From: a virus
Reading direction: 5' to 3' (one strand)
DNA length: 64,000 nucleotides
IMG/VR virus record: IMGVR_UViG_3300042898_004337
Location: 5,607-69,606 of that record
Shown here: piece after piece, positions 18,183 through 27,082 of the stretch
How the letters are laid out: every line of letters begins with the position of its first letter
Numbering within the stretch: position 1 is the stretch's first letter
The notes under the pieces: model-generated
What the model was told of the DNA's origin: nothing
The model's input: the letters and a program-made list of their open reading frames with translations, nothing else
Databases searched by the model: none
Made by a program: the position numbers and the translations under genes

Positions 18183-18268
18183 GGAGCTTGTCCCCCATTG
18201 CCAGCTGTAACCTGGTAGCCATTATTAAGTGGGGTGGCTGGCAAGAGGTTCGATTCCTTCAGGCTCCA
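18183..18268 (+). tRNA. atypical tRNA-like gene (86 nt; possible GUA anticodon arm, poor D-arm)
   Basis: GGTTCGATTCC T-loop, 7-bp acceptor pairing GGAGCTT/AGGCTCC, encoded CCA. Confidence 0.3.
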
Positions 18269-18278
18269 CCAATTTTAT

Positions 18279-18351
18279 CTCGCATTCGGTTAGCGGCTAT
18301 GCCACCTGGTTTGGGGCCAGGATTTCGAAGGTTCGAGTCCTTCATGCGAGA
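18279..18351 (+). tRNA. tRNA-Pro(UGG)
   Basis: acceptor CTCGCAT/ATGCGAG, anticodon stem CCTGG/CCAGG, loop TTTGGGG, T-arm GAAGG-TTCGAGT-CCTTC, CCA encoded. Confidence 0.7.
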
Positions 18352-18363
18352 CCAAGTTTAAAT

Positions 18364-18452
18364 GGAAAGTAATGCAGCGGGGTTGGTCCTGCGACCAGCC
18401 TTGAAAACTGGGTTCTCAGAAATGGGATGGGGTTCGACTCCTCTGCTTTCCG
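18364..18452 (+). tRNA. tRNA-Ser(UGA), class II
   Basis: acceptor GGAAAGT/GCTTTCC, D-stem GCAG/CTGC with GG loop, loop CTTGAAA, long variable arm, T-loop TTCGACT, CCA. Confidence 0.5.
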
Positions 18453-18461
18453 CCAAGACAA

Positions 18462-18490
18462 TTGACAAATTCTACATAAGATTGTATAAT
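18462..18490 (+). promoter_or_regulatory. sigma70 consensus promoter TTGACA-N17-TATAAT
   Basis: perfect hexamers. Confidence 0.65.
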
Positions 18491-18498
18491 TACATTAT

Positions 18499-18611
18499 AC
18501 GACCGTAAGTGGAATATGGCAGACCTCCCGTTATGCTCATAGCATAGGTCAGGGGAAGGGGCACATAACATAGTTACCGTGCTCTTGTAGGTTCGAGACC
18601 TACCGGTCGTA
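18499..18611 (+). ncRNA. 113-nt tRNA-like RNA (canonical acceptor, T-arm and CCA; expanded internal region)
   Basis: ACGACCG/CGGTCGT acceptor pairing, GTAGG-TTCGAGA-CCTAC T-arm, CCA; about 40 extra internal nt. Confidence 0.3.
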
Positions 18612-18615
18612 CCAG

Positions 18616-18684
18616 TTTTAGGATCAGTTCAGCAAACTTAAAAACTTTTTTATTATTCAAAAAAACCAAAGTTGATCCTGTTTT
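18616..18684 (+). repeat. conserved intergenic hairpin element TTTTAGGAT...CAGCAAAC...ATCCTGTTTT (copy 1)
   Basis: inverted repeat AGGATCA/TGATCCT flanking AT-rich loop; family also at 18765, 19338, 26481. Confidence 0.5.
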
Positions 18685-18689
18685 ATTAT

Positions 18690-18761
18690 GTATCCCTAGT
18701 GTCAGCGGCAGCACGCCGGTCTCCAAAACCGTTAGGCTTGGTTCAAATCCAAGGGGGTATG
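18690..18761 (+). tRNA. tRNA-Trp(CCA)
   Basis: acceptor GTATCCC/GGGGTAT, loop CTCCAAA, T-arm CTTGG-TTCAAAT-CCAAG, CCA. Confidence 0.7.
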
Positions 18762-18764
18762 CCA

Positions 18765-18831
18765 GTTTTAGGATGCGTCCAGCAAATCAAAAAATTCAAC
18801 TTTTAATTGAAAAATAAGCATCCTGTTTTTT
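18765..18831 (+). repeat. conserved intergenic hairpin element (copy 2)
   Basis: TTTTAGGATGCG...CAGCAAAT...GCATCCTGTTTTTT. Confidence 0.5.
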
Positions 18832-18833
18832 GT

Positions 18834-18904
18834 TCCCGGATTGTGTAATGGTAGCACAACAGACTTTGACTCTGTTAGCCTAGGTTCGATCCCTAGTCCG
18901 GGTG
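18834..18904 (+). tRNA. tRNA-Gln(UUG)
   Basis: anticodon stem ACAGA/TCTGT, loop CTTTGAC, T-arm CTAGG-TTCGATC-CCTAG, CCA. Confidence 0.65.
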
Positions 18905-18930
18905 CCAATATTTTGTTAGACTTCTTAGGT

Positions 18931-19001
18931 GTGACTATGTTGTAATGGTAGCAACCTAGACTGTGACTCTGGTAGTACGGGTTCAAATCCCGTTAGTCAC
19001 C
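18931..19001 (+). tRNA. tRNA-His(GUG)
   Basis: acceptor GTGACTA/TAGTCAC, loop CTGTGAC, T-arm ACGGG-TTCAAAT-CCCGT; CCA not encoded. Confidence 0.65.
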
Positions 19002-19016
19002 CCTAAGTAGTTTATT

Positions 19017-19087
19017 CCTCTTGTAGTTAAATGGTATAACAGTCGGCTGATAACCGGCCATTACAAGTTCGATTCTTGTCGAGAGGA
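19017..19087 (+). tRNA. tRNA-Ile(GAU)
   Basis: anticodon stem GTCGG/CCGGC, loop CTGATAA, T-arm ACAAG-TTCGATT-CTTGT, CCA. Confidence 0.65.
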
Positions 19088-25023: not shown

Positions 25024-25053
25024 CCAAATTTTTTAAACCAACGAAAGTAATAG

Positions 25054-25284
25054 ATGATTAAAGTTATTAAAGTTCCCTTTTCTCCACAGAACATCGACAC
25101 AGACAAATGTGTCGAAGCCGTGGGCAATAGATTTGATCTAGTTCTGATTGCCAGTGCTCGAGTTCGCGAACTGCGACGTGGTCATGCCAAGCAGGTTAGT
25201 GGAACTAACAGTGCTACTATTACTGCCTTGCAAGAAATCGAAGCAGGCAAGATTGGTAGAGAATATCTTAAAAAGGTTCGGTAA
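25054..25284 (+). CDS. hypothetical protein (76 aa)
   Basis: ORF track. Confidence 0.4.
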   Translation: MIKVIKVPFSPQNIDTDKCVEAVGNRFDLVLIASARVRELRRGHAKQVSGTNSATITALQEIEAGKIGREYLKKVR

Positions 25285-25550
25285 TGTCAAAAGGGTCGAG
25301 GCCGCGTCCTTATAGTGTTAGCCAGAATACATTTGCTAACAACTATGACGCTATTTTTGGAAAGAAAGATATGCAAGTAAGAGTAAAAGAAAATGCAGAT
25401 GAGATTGGAAAATGCGGTTGTGGTCGTAGTCCGACTGGTAAGTGTGTCGGTTGGCATGGTCTAACAGAAGCTGACTTTCAATCAAAGCTAGCATCATATC
25501 TAGCAGATGAACAGTCAAAGAATGTAAGTGATTCCACTCAGGGCGGTTAA
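25284..25550 (+). CDS. hypothetical protein (88 aa, Cys-containing)
   Basis: TAATG stop-start overlap with upstream ORF. Confidence 0.4.
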   Translation: MSKGSRPRPYSVSQNTFANNYDAIFGKKDMQVRVKENADEIGKCGCGRSPTGKCVGWHGLTEADFQSKLASYLADEQSKNVSDSTQGG

Positions 25551-25559
25551 ATATATTGC

Positions 25560-25631
25560 GCCCTGTTAGCACAGTGGCAATGCGCCGCTCTTGTAAAGCG
25601 GAGATCGTCTGTTCGATTCAGACACGGGGCA
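25560..25631 (+). tRNA. tRNA-Thr(UGU) (second copy)
   Basis: acceptor GCCCTGT/ACGGGGC, stem CCGCT/AGCGG, loop CTTGTAA, T-arm GTCTG-TTCGATT-CAGAC, CCA. Confidence 0.65.
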
Positions 25632-25639
25632 CCAAGTTT

Positions 25640-26000
25640 TTAGGTTAATTACAGCTATCAAAAATATGCCGACTGCTAGGTCATTAAACTAGTATTAACC
25701 TGTCGAACACCCGGTTTACTGTTTTTACGTTATAAAACAGCGTCCCTGTAACGATAGACCAGGGGGTACACTAGGACCTGACCTCACAGTCCCCATTTCA
25801 GGGATACTGGAAACTGCCTAGGGTGAGGATTAACAGCCTTTCCAAAAGAAGAAAATGTTATGGACAGAGTAACAGCTCAGTCTAGGGCTCATGTGGTGTG
25901 AGTAGCTAGACACTTTATTGAAATACATTTAGCCTAAACCATAGGTTGGGAAGATGGGATGCACACCACCCGAGTGAAACGTGATAAATGTATTTTAATA
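25640..26000 (+). ncRNA. about 360-nt non-coding region with extensive local secondary structure (candidate structured RNA)
   Basis: no ORF >60 aa on either strand within a tightly packed array; paired segments e.g. CCCTG...CAGGGGG, CCTCAC...GTGAGG. Confidence 0.25.
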
Positions 26001-26006
26001 AAGTAT

Positions 26007-26077
26007 GCGGGGTTAGTTTAGTGGTAAAACGAGATCCTTCCAAGTTCAAGTCGCGAGTTCGATTCTCGCACCCCGCT
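26007..26077 (+). tRNA. tRNA-Gly(UCC) (second copy)
   Basis: acceptor GCGGGGT/ACCCCGC, loop CTTCCAA, T-arm GCGAG-TTCGATT-CTCGC, discriminator U, CCA. Confidence 0.6.
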
Positions 26078-26179
26078 CCAAGTTTTGTAGAGATGCAAGT
26101 GCCAATCTGAGTTATAAACTCCCCGGTGCATCCCGGCTATGCTTAGATATTGGCTCTAGGCTTACTACAGTTTTTATTT

Positions 26180-26251
26180 GCCTCGTTAACTCAGTGGTAG
26201 AGTGACGCTTTTACACGGCGTAGGTCGGCAGTTCGAAACTGTCACGAGGTA
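26180..26251 (+). tRNA. tRNA-Val(UAC)
   Basis: D-arm ACTC-AGTGGTAG-AGT, stem ACGCT/GGCGT, loop TTTACAC, T-arm GGCAG-TTCGAAA-CTGTC, CCA. Confidence 0.65.
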
Positions 26252-26261
26252 CCAAGATAAT

Positions 26262-26335
26262 CGGTGTGTAGCTCAGCTTGGTAGAGCTCTGCGTTTGGGA
26301 CGCAGTGGTCGCATGTTCAAATCGTGTCACACCGA
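26262..26335 (+). tRNA. tRNA-Pro(UGG) (second copy)
   Basis: acceptor CGGTGTG/CACACCG, D-arm TAGCTCAGCTTGGTAGAGC, stem CTGCG/CGCAG, loop TTTGGGA, T-loop TTCAAAT, CCA. Confidence 0.65.
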
Positions 26336-26405
26336 CCATAAATACAAAAAAGAATTCACCATGGCACACGGTGTATAATAGGATAAGTAGTGTGGCAAAG
26401 AATAT

Positions 26406-26476
26406 AGCGGGCAGGGCGGCCACCACTCCAGTCTCATAAGCTCGGAGCATCCCAGGTTCAAATCCTGGGCCCGCAT
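26406..26476 (+). ncRNA. atypical tRNA-like element (T-arm CCAGG-TTCAAAT-CCTGG, CCA; interior non-canonical)
   Basis: acceptor AGCGGGC/GCCCGCA with one mismatch. Confidence 0.3.
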
Positions 26477-26480
26477 CCAA

Positions 26481-26604
26481 TTTTAGGATACATGCAGCAA
26501 CGTCTTAAATGACATGTTGGTTCGATTCCAACTCCACGCTTTTGCGTAGATCGCTCAATGGTAGAGCAATGGCTTCCAAGCCATCGAAAAAGGTATCCTG
26601 TTTT
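26481..26604 (+). repeat. conserved intergenic hairpin element (copy 4) enclosing split/permuted tRNA-like halves
   Basis: TTTTAGGATACATGCAGCAAC...GGTATCCTGTTTT; interior has a T-arm plus 3' acceptor strand (26516-26539) upstream of a 5' acceptor/D-arm/anticodon-arm segment (26544-26584). Confidence 0.4.
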
Positions 26605-26871
26605 ATTTTGTTATTCCGGACGCCCTGAAAGGGGAGGTGGTATCGAGCAGTGCGGCAGTATAGCTGCCATGGCGTCGTGAGGTTGTAGAACAATAAACTG
26701 ATAAAATCTACAATATAACAAATGGTTTGACCATTTAGGTTCTTTTCAGCAATCTTATTAAACTTTCTGTAAAAAAGACGGGCCAGGTTCGAATCCTGGG
26801 CACTGCTTGGTCAGCGGTGTTGGTGTAGTGGTAGCACATAAAATGAGAACCTGTTAACTAAAGGAGTAGAC

Positions 26872-27012
26872 ATGAAAGTAAAAGAAACGCTTGACAAAGC
26901 ATACGGTAATGTCCCAAAAGAAATAACTCCTAGTTTCGGAATGGATTGGCCTCCATCATTCCGCGGAGTTAAATACTACTGGCTAAAACTAGTAAGAAAA
27001 TTCACAAGATAA
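26872..27012 (+). CDS. hypothetical small protein (46 aa)
   Basis: strong AAAGGAG RBS; immediately downstream of a tRNA 5'-fragment (26812-26845). Confidence 0.4.
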   Translation: MKVKETLDKAYGNVPKEITPSFGMDWPPSFRGVKYYWLKLVRKFTR

Positions 27013-27082
27013 GCGGGTATGATGTAATGGTAGCCTGTGACCTTGCCAAGGTTAGAGCCCGAGTTCGATTCTCGGTACCCGC
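27012..27082 (+). tRNA. tRNA-Gly(GCC)
   Basis: acceptor GCGGGTA/TACCCGC, stem TGACC/GGTTA, loop TTGCCAA, T-arm CCGAG-TTCGATT-CTCGG, discriminator U, CCA. Confidence 0.65.

Follow-up and report, generated by a model that had tools for sequence, protein, structure and literature searches.

The tRNA cluster of phages T4 and T6 comprises eight tRNA genes and two stable RNAs of unknown function (species 1 and 2). Larger sets are carried by C1 mycobacteriophages of the Bxz1, Rizal and ET08 type, which average about 33 tRNAs (PMC10264068), by Xanthomonas phage XacN1, with 56 (PMC5852040), and by huge phages, with up to 67 (PMC7162821). Here we analyze a 64,000-nt stretch of viral DNA (positions 5,607 to 69,606 of IMG/VR record IMGVR_UViG_3300042898_004337; hereafter the window, to which all coordinates refer) that contains an array of 40 tRNA genes interleaved with conserved non-tRNA RNAs. 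On balance, we consider it probable that the region is a genuine cluster of tRNA and small-RNA genes with multiple promoters, serving the translational self-sufficiency of an uncultured large (jumbo-class) myovirus-like phage. The array resembles those of XacN1 and the huge phages in combining dozens of tRNAs, all 20 amino acids and a large genome, tRNA number rising with genome size. The tRNAs of XacN1, however, reside in 66-kb terminal repeats, whereas here 40 occupy one 9-kb single-strand array with six consensus promoters. With the C1 mycobacteriophages it shares a large tRNA cluster accompanied by tRNA-mimicking Y-like RNAs, and with the T4/T6 cluster the apparent co-transcription of tRNAs with non-tRNA stable RNAs and a free-standing homing-type endonuclease gene, which in that cluster is SegB (PMC13096335). 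Compared to T4/T6, the array is five times larger, its endonuclease is HNH-like and not GIY-YIG, and no sequence similarity was found. Among phages at large, 40 tRNAs is a high number, not a record.

An earlier note, made from the sequence alone, had described this region as a single array of roughly 9 kb with about 50 tRNA or tRNA-like genes for all 20 amino acids, most of them encoding CCA, and had named automated tRNA finders as the check. With default settings, ARAGORN identified 40 tRNA genes, all on the plus strand between 18279 and 27086 (8.8 kb), comprising 30 distinct anticodons and all 20 amino acids, and returned none in the remaining 55 kb of the window, which serves as a built-in control. 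The Rfam model RF00005 supports 36 of the 40 at its gathering score (29 bits), and a permissive run adds the Trp gene at 18690 (42 bits) and the Thr gene at 19181 (28.7 bits), bringing the number to 38; Ser-GGA (22172) and an aberrant CAU tRNA (26406) have no Rfam tRNA match. CCA is encoded in 39 of the 40 genes, the exception being His (18931). Along the plus strand, a scan for the T-arm motif located 54 T arms in this region, of which at least 12 fall outside ARAGORN calls; under relaxed settings ARAGORN further reported Ser-UGA, one Asn-like and one Ala-like element, some eight degenerate elements and a CAU tRNA carrying an insertion of 45 nt. The description of a single CCA-encoding array for all amino acids is hence upheld, and about 50 is a fair tally of tRNA-shaped elements, for which about 12 tRNA-like extras account, but not of bona fide tRNAs, which number about 40-42. 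The hand-called list of that note was almost correct. Absent from it were a second Pro tRNA, a third CAU tRNA and all three short Leu tRNAs, Leu-CAA among them; Ser-UGA, which default ARAGORN overlooked and which has homologues in seven related loci (82-93% identity), was correctly called. No transfer-messenger RNA (tmRNA) was detected by default ARAGORN or by Rfam, and lowering the ARAGORN threshold to 80% gave spurious permuted calls only.

The array falls into two parts, 18183-22573 (sub-array A) and 23946-27086, separated by an opposite-strand 245-aa open reading frame (ORF) and an HNH-type endonuclease-like ORF. The tRNAs account for 3,081 of its 8,808 nt. Gaps of at most 12 nt make up 15 of the 39 inter-tRNA intervals, and the trailers 3' of CCA are A/U-rich in 32 of 40 cases, 13 of which carry (A)GUU; short gaps and A/U-rich trailers are expected under co-transcription and processing. 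The repeated consensus promoters reported earlier are also confirmed: the window holds nine perfect 12/12 TTGACA-17-TATAAT sequences, every one on the plus strand, and six of these lie within the array or at its edge (Table 1). A GC-rich hairpin past the last tRNA (27090-27117) is likely the terminator of the array. We propose that host sigma-70 RNA polymerase would start at the six perfect promoters to generate several polycistronic precursors, that RNase P would cut the tRNA 5' ends, and that an endonuclease would cut the A/U-rich trailers after the encoded CCA, with exonucleases trimming back to CCA. Such processing would free about 40-42 tRNAs, which would then be aminoacylated, together with the interleaved non-tRNA RNAs. 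The segment 20812-20927, between the 20780 promoter and the Lys tRNAs, is 75-84% identical in 11 loci; the transcript predicted from this promoter would start with a Shine-Dalgarno-like AAGAGG and a 7-codon mini-ORF (MKRSGKR).

The earlier note took the array to imply strong codon-usage compensation or a broad host range; the relation demonstrable from the sequence is a match of the tRNA set to the A/U-rich codon usage of the phage itself. ORFs in the window have a third-position GC content (GC3) of 0.31, with 69.5% of codons ending in A or U, and 18 of the 40 anticodons start with U (U34). Under strict wobble, the 40 tRNAs read 52 of the 61 sense codons, corresponding to 89% of codon usage. 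If U34 is taken to read all four codons of its box, only UCA, UCG and AUA are left unread, AUA representing 30% of the Ile codons in window ORFs. Ser-UGA (18364) and a UAU tRNA (24277) serve exactly these three codons, which argues that both of these marginal tRNAs are functional and that the set may constitute a complete decoder for the phage's own genes; with both counted and U34 four-way reading allowed, 61 of 61 codons are readable. One U34 tRNA per four-codon box, the G34 tRNAs and the dedicated AUA and UCA/UCG tRNAs would form a self-sufficient decoding set, and phage translation would no longer depend on how the host tRNA pool is composed or on whether it survives.

Comparison with related loci, which were located using the metallophosphoesterase gene downstream of the array as an anchor, revealed that arrays of this kind are normal in the clade. 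At least 15 loci of at most 15 kb harbor 31-38 tRNAs each, several of them covering all 20 amino acids, and the count in the window is ordinary among them. The earlier claim that it lies far above T4-like phages therefore holds against cultured T4-like phages, but not as a mark of an extreme array, either within its own clade or among phages. As to a T4-like label, rIIA is encoded in the window (phrog_612, 5e-131, PHROG profile search), but at only 28-43% identity to any cultured phage it suggests no close T4 kinship. Over its full length it is most similar to homologues in PA5oct-like Pseudomonas jumbo phages (28% identity); matches to T4-like phages (37-43%) cover only about half of the protein. 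The metallophosphoesterase has 151 IMG/VR relatives, on contigs of up to 300 kb, and contigs bearing the motif of the 158-nt RNA described below reach 383 kb. Together, the weak rIIA identities and the presence of relatives on 300-383 kb contigs suggest a member of a widespread uncultured clade of large phages and not a close T4 relative. A nucleotide search of the array against 50,697 phage records returned a single tRNA as sole match, at the integrase end of Pseudomonas phage phi3, pointing to the lack of a cultured relative at the nucleotide level. The phage context of the array is firm, resting on rIIA, the 151 phosphoesterase relatives and the arrays in at least 15 related loci; phage genes flank it on either side, and structural or replication core genes were not found within the 64-kb window. 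The matching tRNA(CAU), at 24380-24454, is 89% identical to this phi3 sequence, which probably represents an attachment-site copy of a tRNA; the match may be taken as a weak hint of a proteobacterial tRNA origin.

In BLAST searches against the related loci, the longest and strongest matches were not tRNAs but the stretches between them, and these spacers are the best conserved DNA of the array. The spacer between the short Leu-CAA and Leu-UAG tRNAs encodes a 158-nt RNA whose invariant 19-mer occurs in 101 IMG/VR contigs. Its 109 full-length copies (78 unique) all lie within tRNA arrays, usually beginning 1-4 nt past a CCA end. Across 64 sequences, compensatory changes were observed at 21 of 41 predicted pairs and 97.4% of cells were paired, compared to 37-46% when partners were slid by 1-3 columns, and double-change cells numbered 268 against 81 ± 7 in shuffled alignments, none of 500 shuffles reaching the observed value. 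Rfam 15 returned no match with E values allowed up to 10, a distant DNA search of cultured phages revealed no copy, and the RNA is well supported as a new structured family. A second structured RNA, with a core of about 220 nt (25706-25935), shows 80-91% identity in relatives and compensatory changes at 13 of 30 predicted pairs; the same Rfam and cultured-phage searches gave no match. Its identification as tmRNA or RNase P was rejected, the ARAGORN tmRNA calls being spurious and located elsewhere, and no P4-type motifs being seen by eye. A third conserved spacer (21335-21560), with a partial YrlA match at 21404-21456, appears to be a partial permuted tRNA mimic. Like GOLLD and ROOL (PMC12286853), the first two of these are conserved structured RNAs of phages or prophages with no known function, often beside tRNA islands; GOLLD and ROOL, however, are in Rfam and large (GOLLD members often exceed 800 nt), whereas the RNAs described here measure 158 and about 220 nt, are unrelated in sequence and sit between tRNAs, so that tRNA processing would release them.

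The array also contains six hairpins, which the earlier note had seen as conserved punctuation. They do exist in six copies, but they are more than punctuation, belonging to a strand-specific RNA family with 205 copies across 1.69 Mb of related loci (L001-L177). The window hairpins follow the pattern TTTAGGWT-N5-CAGCWA ... WWCCTGTT, expected 0.19 times by chance in the form that describes four of the six, and share an 8-9 bp stem (AGGAUnnn / nnnAUCCU), with CAGCWA just inside the 5' strand and GUU past the 3' strand. Among the 205 elements of this arm family, 114 are short (50-69 nt) and 64, of 90-119 nt, enclose an internal T arm; 137 lie at most 9 nt from a CCA end. Of 67 unique perfect stems that a motif-independent search identified on the tRNA strand, 50 carried CAGCN, compared to none of their 57 mirror images on the other strand, and the motif-bearing stems include 21 G-U pairs; both the strand bias and the G-U pairs suggest that the element acts as RNA on the tRNA strand. 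A role as intrinsic terminators was rejected: the A/U-rich stems enclose 40-100 nt, none appears in the terminator-scan list, and tRNAs lacking a promoter of their own directly follow H1 and H2.

Two of the six hairpins, designated Y1 and Y2, enclose circularly permuted tRNA mimics, the order in Y1 being T arm, loop-closed acceptor stem, D arm and anticodon-like arm. Alignments of Y1- and Y2-type elements show no variation in the T and D arms and, in the closed acceptor stem, compensatory substitutions only; in a third type of long member the family arm replaces the acceptor stem of a body with D, anticodon and T arms in normal order. Some mycobacteriophages encode Ro60 and YrlA (PMC4201824), and the architecture of YrlA (RF02553), a terminal stem around a permuted module of T arm, loop-closed acceptor-like stem and D arm (PMC4201824), is shared here. 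The YrlA model aligns over its full length to Y1, but scores only 29.3 bits, the gathering score being 69. Mycobacteriophage YrlA adjoins a Ro60 gene and bears the motif GNCGAAN0-1G, whose position near the YrlA 5' end marks the likely Ro60/Rsr site (PMC4201824). This motif is absent from all six arm elements, in which CAGCWA is conserved instead (CAGCAA in H1), several mimics occur per array, no ORF of at least 300 aa lies within 4 kb, and no TROVE match was found among the scanned window ORFs of at least 180 aa. Furthermore, some arm members add an anticodon-like arm, while others enclose a normal-order tRNA body or nothing. Because both the motif and the Ro60 neighbor fail, and given the score, we do not assign the hairpins or mimics to YrlA and regard the Y1 and Y2 elements as Y-RNA-like tRNA mimics. 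The 45-nt insertion of the CAU tRNA-like RNA at 21885-22003 (present in 3-5 loci, 74-81% identity) reads AUCCU-GACA-AGGAU followed by CAGCAG and could be a loop-closed arm motif; a regular-expression survey yielded just two loose matches and missed the copy in the window, leaving this assignment unproven.

Three Leu tRNAs, at 21561 (CAA), 21799 (UAG) and 22088 (UAA), measure 78-79 nt, have a 5-nt variable loop and score 54-57 bits in Rfam; the long variable arm of bacterial class-II tRNA-Leu, normal in the copies at 23946 and 24509, is absent from them. Across loci, short forms outnumber long ones 63 to 4 for CAA, and the ratio is 38 to 33 for UAG and 20 to 41 for UAA, with Ser and Tyr tRNAs being long in every case. 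All 68 unique, CCA-encoding short Leu tRNAs have A73, and they conserve a G18G19 D loop (CAA-U-UGGUAG); A73 and the D-loop G18G19 are identity elements of E. coli LeuRS (PMC9976931). Conversely, the 41 copies of the UAU tRNA, in at least four lineages, are all 88-95 nt long, with a long variable arm and A73-CCA. The variable-arm loop of the 92-nt window copy reads CAGAUUA, and the consensus YAGAUWA is present in 38 of 41 UAU tRNAs but missing from all of the roughly 260 other long tRNAs; its resemblance to the Ile-GAU anticodon loop is noted as an observation only. Variable-arm pairing was measured around this loop motif, and a single structure line was abandoned since indels shift the pairing. 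The anticodon loop has the canonical 7 nt with U33 and A37, reading CUUAUAG in the window, closed by a C-A mismatch, and UUUAUAA or UUUAUAU in homologues. The class-II body and A73 would fit leucine identity as well as isoleucine. Neither feature is a novelty of the clade, both being annotated in cultured phages: 113 records from phages that infect widely differing hosts label relatives of the short Leu tRNAs as tRNA-Leu, two 77-nt genes of Bacillus phage P59 among them, and the annotation of Sinorhizobium phage Phosso contains a 93-nt tRNA-Ile(tat). A literature search found no paper discussing short-arm tRNA-Leu or long-arm UAU tRNA of phages. The nematode nev-tRNAs (PMC3333845) likewise join a class-II body to an isoleucine UAU anticodon; they are eukaryotic and have been described to decode, for leucine, an alternative genetic code (PMC3333845).

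Several observations weigh against translational self-sufficiency as the full account of the array. There is no correlation between tRNA gene copy number and codon demand (rho 0.24, p 0.21), and full codon coverage hinges both on two tRNAs rejected by default ARAGORN and on U34 four-way reading, which is itself modification-dependent. The roughly 12 tRNA-like elements, the mimics and the divergent duplicates are unexplained by a pure supply model. Eight anticodons are present twice and, because same-anticodon copies are only 59-75% identical, the array appears to consist of two old, divergent tRNA sets and not of recent duplicates. Lastly, the array seems to relocate as a block. Two loci, L002 and L003, are 99% identical to the window across rIIA, their homology ends at 27655, and they have no tRNAs in the 8.8 kb upstream, L003 carrying unrelated genes at the site where the window has the array. 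Their interpretation as close relatives devoid of the array was rejected, since L003 shares a 208-kb viral contig (IMGVR_UViG_3300042302_000394) with locus L104, an array in the gene order of the window. The presence of the array at another genomic position in a 99%-identical relative suggests a movable module, with its breakpoint at 27655.

The array could instead act mainly in counter-defence, its tRNAs replacing those cut by host defences and evading the same cleavage through altered shapes or loops, and its mimics serving as decoys or sponges for nucleases, a general idea with precedents in the literature (PMC10264068, PMC11555353, PMC11464382, PMC13096335). The divergent second versions of eight anticodons would suit this role, as would the coexistence of long-arm and short-arm forms of Leu-UAA and Leu-UAG and the abundance of mimics among the arm elements. 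So would the HNH-type endonuclease gene inside the array, which parallels SegB, known to amplify tRNA genes and thereby defeat the Septu defence (PMC13096335), and the Pnkp-like kinase and phosphoesterase just downstream, which could heal cut RNA ends. The kinase match, however, is weak and covers one domain only (E 0.008 to PDB Pnkp1; 1.6e-5 to NCBIfam bacter_Pnkp), no RNA ligase was seen in the window, and the short-arm Leu lineage, being present in phages of widely differing hosts, could equally well be an ancient inherited trait. Bacterial Schlafen was considered as a nuclease specific for long-arm tRNAs and dropped, the characterized enzyme cutting Lys, Ala and Met anticodon arms (PMC13056530). 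Counter-defence is a serious rival and compatible with self-sufficiency, so that both could hold together; as the main function, we deem it rather unlikely. We assign a low probability to the proposal, made in the earlier note, that the set allows infection of many hosts with differing codon usage. Only general reasoning favors it, in that a full set frees a phage from the tRNA pool of any one host, and XacN1, with its 56 tRNAs, is reported to have a wide host range (PMC5852040), but the set fits the phage's own A/U-rich codons rather than a broad range, the CAG, GAG, GGC and CGG anticodons being absent. That the locus is mostly decaying pseudogenes, a bacterial tRNA island or an assembly artefact is highly improbable and largely refuted. 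About 12 tRNA-like elements do fail default ARAGORN, those at 18499-18614 (no homologue among the first 80 loci) and 20360-20441 have no homologue in relatives, and the ARAGORN call at 26406 has a defective D arm and lacks an Rfam match. Against this stand the 36 tRNAs that pass the curated Rfam score, the retention of CCA, the perfect promoters, the identical gene order on independent metagenome contigs (L104), the flanking phage genes and the conserved spacers with their compensatory changes.

More tentatively, and within the reading of the locus as a working tRNA and small-RNA cluster, the array may yield at least three conserved non-tRNA RNA families freed by tRNA processing: the 158-nt RNA, the RNA of about 220 nt and the arm motif, whose mimics might be Ro60-independent, Y-RNA-like binders of a phage or host factor, for instance by acting as decoys that divert tRNA-targeting nucleases or by providing a scaffold to RNA-processing enzymes. 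The same proposal, which we rate as possible rather than probable, would make the variable-arm loop of the UAU tRNA a recognition element for charging or modification.

The array and its borders also hold several protein-coding genes (Table 1). The RNA polymerase omega (RpoZ) homologue scores 36.9 bits against an NCBIfam equivalog cut-off of 23.6. In phage Phosso (locus L179), an HNH endonuclease gene adjoins the tRNA-Ile(tat) gene as well. Right after the array, the segment 27896-29409 encodes a dual-specificity-phosphatase-like protein, the P-loop kinase and the metallophosphoesterase, conserved but rearranged in related loci, and these three enzymes could be an RNA end-healing set. Elsewhere, the window carries auxiliary genes typical of large environmental phages, including bilin reductase, curli components, 2OG-Fe(II) oxygenases, radical SAM enzymes, GTP cyclohydrolase I, and TRAP and TctC binding proteins. 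The segment 2224-12413 contains unusual phage cargo: a ferredoxin-dependent bilin reductase, a FecR-domain protein, a CHASE2-nucleotide cyclase, and CsgG and curlin-repeat proteins forming a curli system. Positions 42000-60000 form a low-GC island (29-36%, about 40% elsewhere) with host-like metabolic genes for radical SAM enzymes, fatty-acid desaturases, BKACE, an AMP-binding enzyme, a short-chain dehydrogenase, and TRAP (DctP) and TctC solute-binding proteins. A search for the host using the BKACE gene found no close bacterial relative.

Table 1. Features of the tRNA array and its borders, in window coordinates (MFE, minimum free energy).
Feature	Position	Strand	Evidence or remarks
Perfect sigma-70 consensus promoter upstream of array	17500..17528	+	12/12 TTGACA-17-TATAAT
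Degenerate tRNA-like (acceptor stem, T arm, A73-CCA)	18183..18271	+	T-arm scan; ARAGORN at 80% only; MFE fold without cloverleaf
tRNA-Pro(UGG)	18279..18354	+	ARAGORN; Rfam 49.1 bits
tRNA-Ser(UGA), class II, G73-CCA	18364..18455	+	Rfam clan 33.9 bits; ARAGORN 90% threshold, not default
Perfect consensus promoter	18462..18490	+	12/12
tRNA-like RNA, 116 nt (acceptor stem, T arm, ACCA), enlarged body	18499..18614	+	T-arm scan; relaxed ARAGORN; fold z = -2.0
Arm-family hairpin H1 (AGGAUCAG...UUGAUCCU, CAGCAA motif)	18617..18685	+	
tRNA-Trp(CCA)	18690..18764	+	ARAGORN; Rfam 42 bits
Arm-family hairpin H2	18767..18830	+	
tRNA-Gln(UUG)	18834..18907	+	ARAGORN; Rfam 58.8 bits
tRNA-His(GUG), sole tRNA without encoded CCA	18931..19003	+	ARAGORN; Rfam 60.8 bits
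tRNA-Ile(GAU)	19017..19090	+	ARAGORN; Rfam 62.9 bits
tRNA-Cys(GCA)	19096..19173	+	ARAGORN; Rfam 57 bits
tRNA-Thr(UGU), weak	19181..19256	+	ARAGORN; Rfam 28.7 bits, gathering score 29
tRNA-Gly(UCC)	19264..19337	+	ARAGORN; Rfam 55.2 bits
Arm-family hairpin H3	19339..19405	+	fold z = -2.5
Perfect consensus promoter with TG extension	19450..19478	+	12/12
Degenerate tRNA-like without CCA	19551..19636	+	T-arm scan; relaxed ARAGORN; 3 homologous loci
tRNA-Glu(UUC)	19653..19727	+	ARAGORN; Rfam 53.8 bits
Degenerate tRNA-like, ACCA, atypical T loop	19736..19813	+	ARAGORN 80% threshold; 2 loci, 95-96% identity
tRNA-Asp(GUC)	19818..19893	+	ARAGORN; Rfam 45 bits
tRNA-Tyr(GUA), class II	19901..19987	+	ARAGORN; Rfam 47.9 bits
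tRNA-Asp(GUC), second copy, 71% identical to first	20085..20160	+	ARAGORN; Rfam 57.3 bits
Asn(GUU)-like tRNA without CCA	20184..20260	+	ARAGORN 90% threshold; T arm
Ala(UGC)-like tRNA, reduced D loop, ACCA	20274..20349	+	ARAGORN 90% threshold; 4 loci, 80-84% identity
Degenerate tRNA-like, ACCA, non-canonical T loop	20360..20441	+	read from sequence; no homologue in related loci
Degenerate Ala(UGC)-like, GCCA end	20443..20522	+	ARAGORN 80% threshold; 3 loci, 85-87% identity
tRNA-Phe(GAA)	20530..20605	+	ARAGORN; Rfam 62.6 bits
tRNA-Arg(ACG)	20613..20687	+	ARAGORN; Rfam 59.5 bits
tRNA-Ile(GAU), second copy	20698..20772	+	ARAGORN; Rfam 68.2 bits
Perfect consensus promoter	20780..20808	+	12/12
tRNA-Lys(CUU)	20928..21004	+	ARAGORN; Rfam 33.8 bits
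tRNA-Lys(UUU)	21010..21087	+	ARAGORN; Rfam 58.7 bits
Degenerate tRNA-like without CCA	21094..21172	+	T-arm scan; relaxed ARAGORN
tRNA with CAU anticodon (Met or Ile2)	21179..21253	+	ARAGORN; Rfam 57.5 bits
tRNA-Glu(UUC), second copy	21259..21334	+	ARAGORN; Rfam 52.8 bits
Conserved spacer RNA, 226 nt, T arm then closed hairpin	21335..21560	+	72-77% identity in 6 loci
Short (class-I-shaped) tRNA-Leu(CAA), A73	21561..21639	+	ARAGORN; Rfam 53.9 bits
Conserved structured RNA, 158 nt, between two Leu tRNAs	21640..21798	+	covariation; copies in IMG/VR arrays
Short tRNA-Leu(UAG), A73	21799..21876	+	ARAGORN; Rfam 53.7 bits; cloverleaf
CAU tRNA-like RNA, 45-nt insertion in anticodon stem, ACCA end	21885..22003	+	ARAGORN intron mode; fold
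tRNA-Val(GAC)	22008..22082	+	ARAGORN; Rfam 64.1 bits
Short tRNA-Leu(UAA), A73	22088..22165	+	ARAGORN; Rfam 57 bits
tRNA-Ser(GGA), class II	22172..22261	+	ARAGORN only; no Rfam match
tRNA-Arg(UCU)	22263..22337	+	ARAGORN; Rfam 54.5 bits
tRNA-Arg(UCG)	22342..22416	+	ARAGORN; Rfam 55.7 bits
tRNA-Arg(CCU)	22421..22495	+	ARAGORN; Rfam 53.3 bits
tRNA-Thr(GGU), final gene of sub-array A	22500..22573	+	ARAGORN; Rfam 59.5 bits
ORF of 245 aa between sub-arrays	22546..23283	-	no PHROG, Pfam or NCBIfam match
Perfect consensus promoter	23324..23352	+	12/12
HNH-type endonuclease-like ORF in array	23500..23937	+	phrog_1872 7e-8; phrog_6254 (HNH) 6e-6
tRNA-Leu(UAA), normal class II	23946..24030	+	ARAGORN; Rfam 58 bits
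tRNA-Ser(GCU), class II	24178..24267	+	ARAGORN; Rfam 48.2 bits
Class-II tRNA, UAU anticodon, G1-U72, A73-CCA	24277..24368	+	Rfam clan 26.7 bits; cloverleaf fold z = -2.5
tRNA with CAU anticodon, top-scoring of array	24378..24454	+	ARAGORN; Rfam 73.2 bits
Perfect consensus promoter	24472..24500	+	12/12
tRNA-Leu(UAG), normal class II	24509..24592	+	ARAGORN; Rfam 54.2 bits
tRNA-Ala(UGC)	24674..24748	+	ARAGORN; Rfam 47.6 bits
ORF of 57 aa	24770..24943	+	no family
tRNA-Asn(GUU)	24951..25026	+	ARAGORN; Rfam 58 bits
RNA polymerase omega (RpoZ) homologue, 76 aa	25054..25284	+	Pfam RNA_pol_Rpb6 1.3e-13; NCBIfam rpoZ equivalog
ORF of 88 aa	25284..25550	+	no family
tRNA-Thr(UGU), second copy	25560..25634	+	ARAGORN; Rfam 62.3 bits
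Arm-family hairpin H4	25639..25705	+	
Second conserved structured RNA, core about 220 nt	25706..25935	+	invariant GUGGACAGAGUAAC...GCUAGACAC
tRNA-Gly(UCC), second copy	26007..26080	+	ARAGORN; Rfam 63.5 bits
tRNA-Val(UAC)	26180..26254	+	ARAGORN; Rfam 61.1 bits
tRNA-Pro(UGG), second copy	26262..26338	+	ARAGORN; Rfam 61 bits
Aberrant CAU tRNA, anticodon at position 30, defective D arm	26406..26479	+	ARAGORN only; no Rfam tRNA match
Y1, arm enclosing circularly permuted tRNA mimic	26482..26606	+	YrlA 29.3 bits; fold z = -3.3
Y2, arm enclosing permuted tRNA mimic without anticodon arm	26734..26856	+	9/32 pairs compensatory
ORF of 46 aa	26872..27012	+	no family
tRNA-Gly(GCC), final gene of array	27013..27086	+	ARAGORN; Rfam 55.4 bits
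GC-rich hairpin, UUCG loop, U-rich tail (likely terminator)	27090..27117	+	read from sequence; absent from terminator-scan list
Promoter of downstream protein-coding unit	27116..27144	+	11/12
P-loop kinase, best matches to bacterial Pnkp kinase domain	28364..28828	+	Pfam AAA_33; PDB Pnkp1 E 0.008
Metallophosphoesterase, anchor for finding related loci	28864..29409	+	phrog_547 9e-51; 151 IMG/VR relatives

As a tRNA array, the locus belongs to an established kind and is typical for its clade; it adds a large example, from a widespread uncultured clade, to the debate on whether phage tRNAs serve codon supply or escape from tRNA-cutting defences. The locus also carries three conserved non-tRNA RNA families without an Rfam 15 match, one of them with very strong covariation, and among them the arm family, which counts hundreds of copies and is related to Y RNAs but lacks Ro60. 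The greater value may lie between the tRNAs, where the new RNA family and the mimics offer a testable entry into roles of tRNA clusters beyond decoding. Furthermore, Leu anticodons on short-arm bodies and an AUA anticodon on a long-arm body constitute a natural test of synthetase identity rules that have been stated to hold in all organisms except animal mitochondria.

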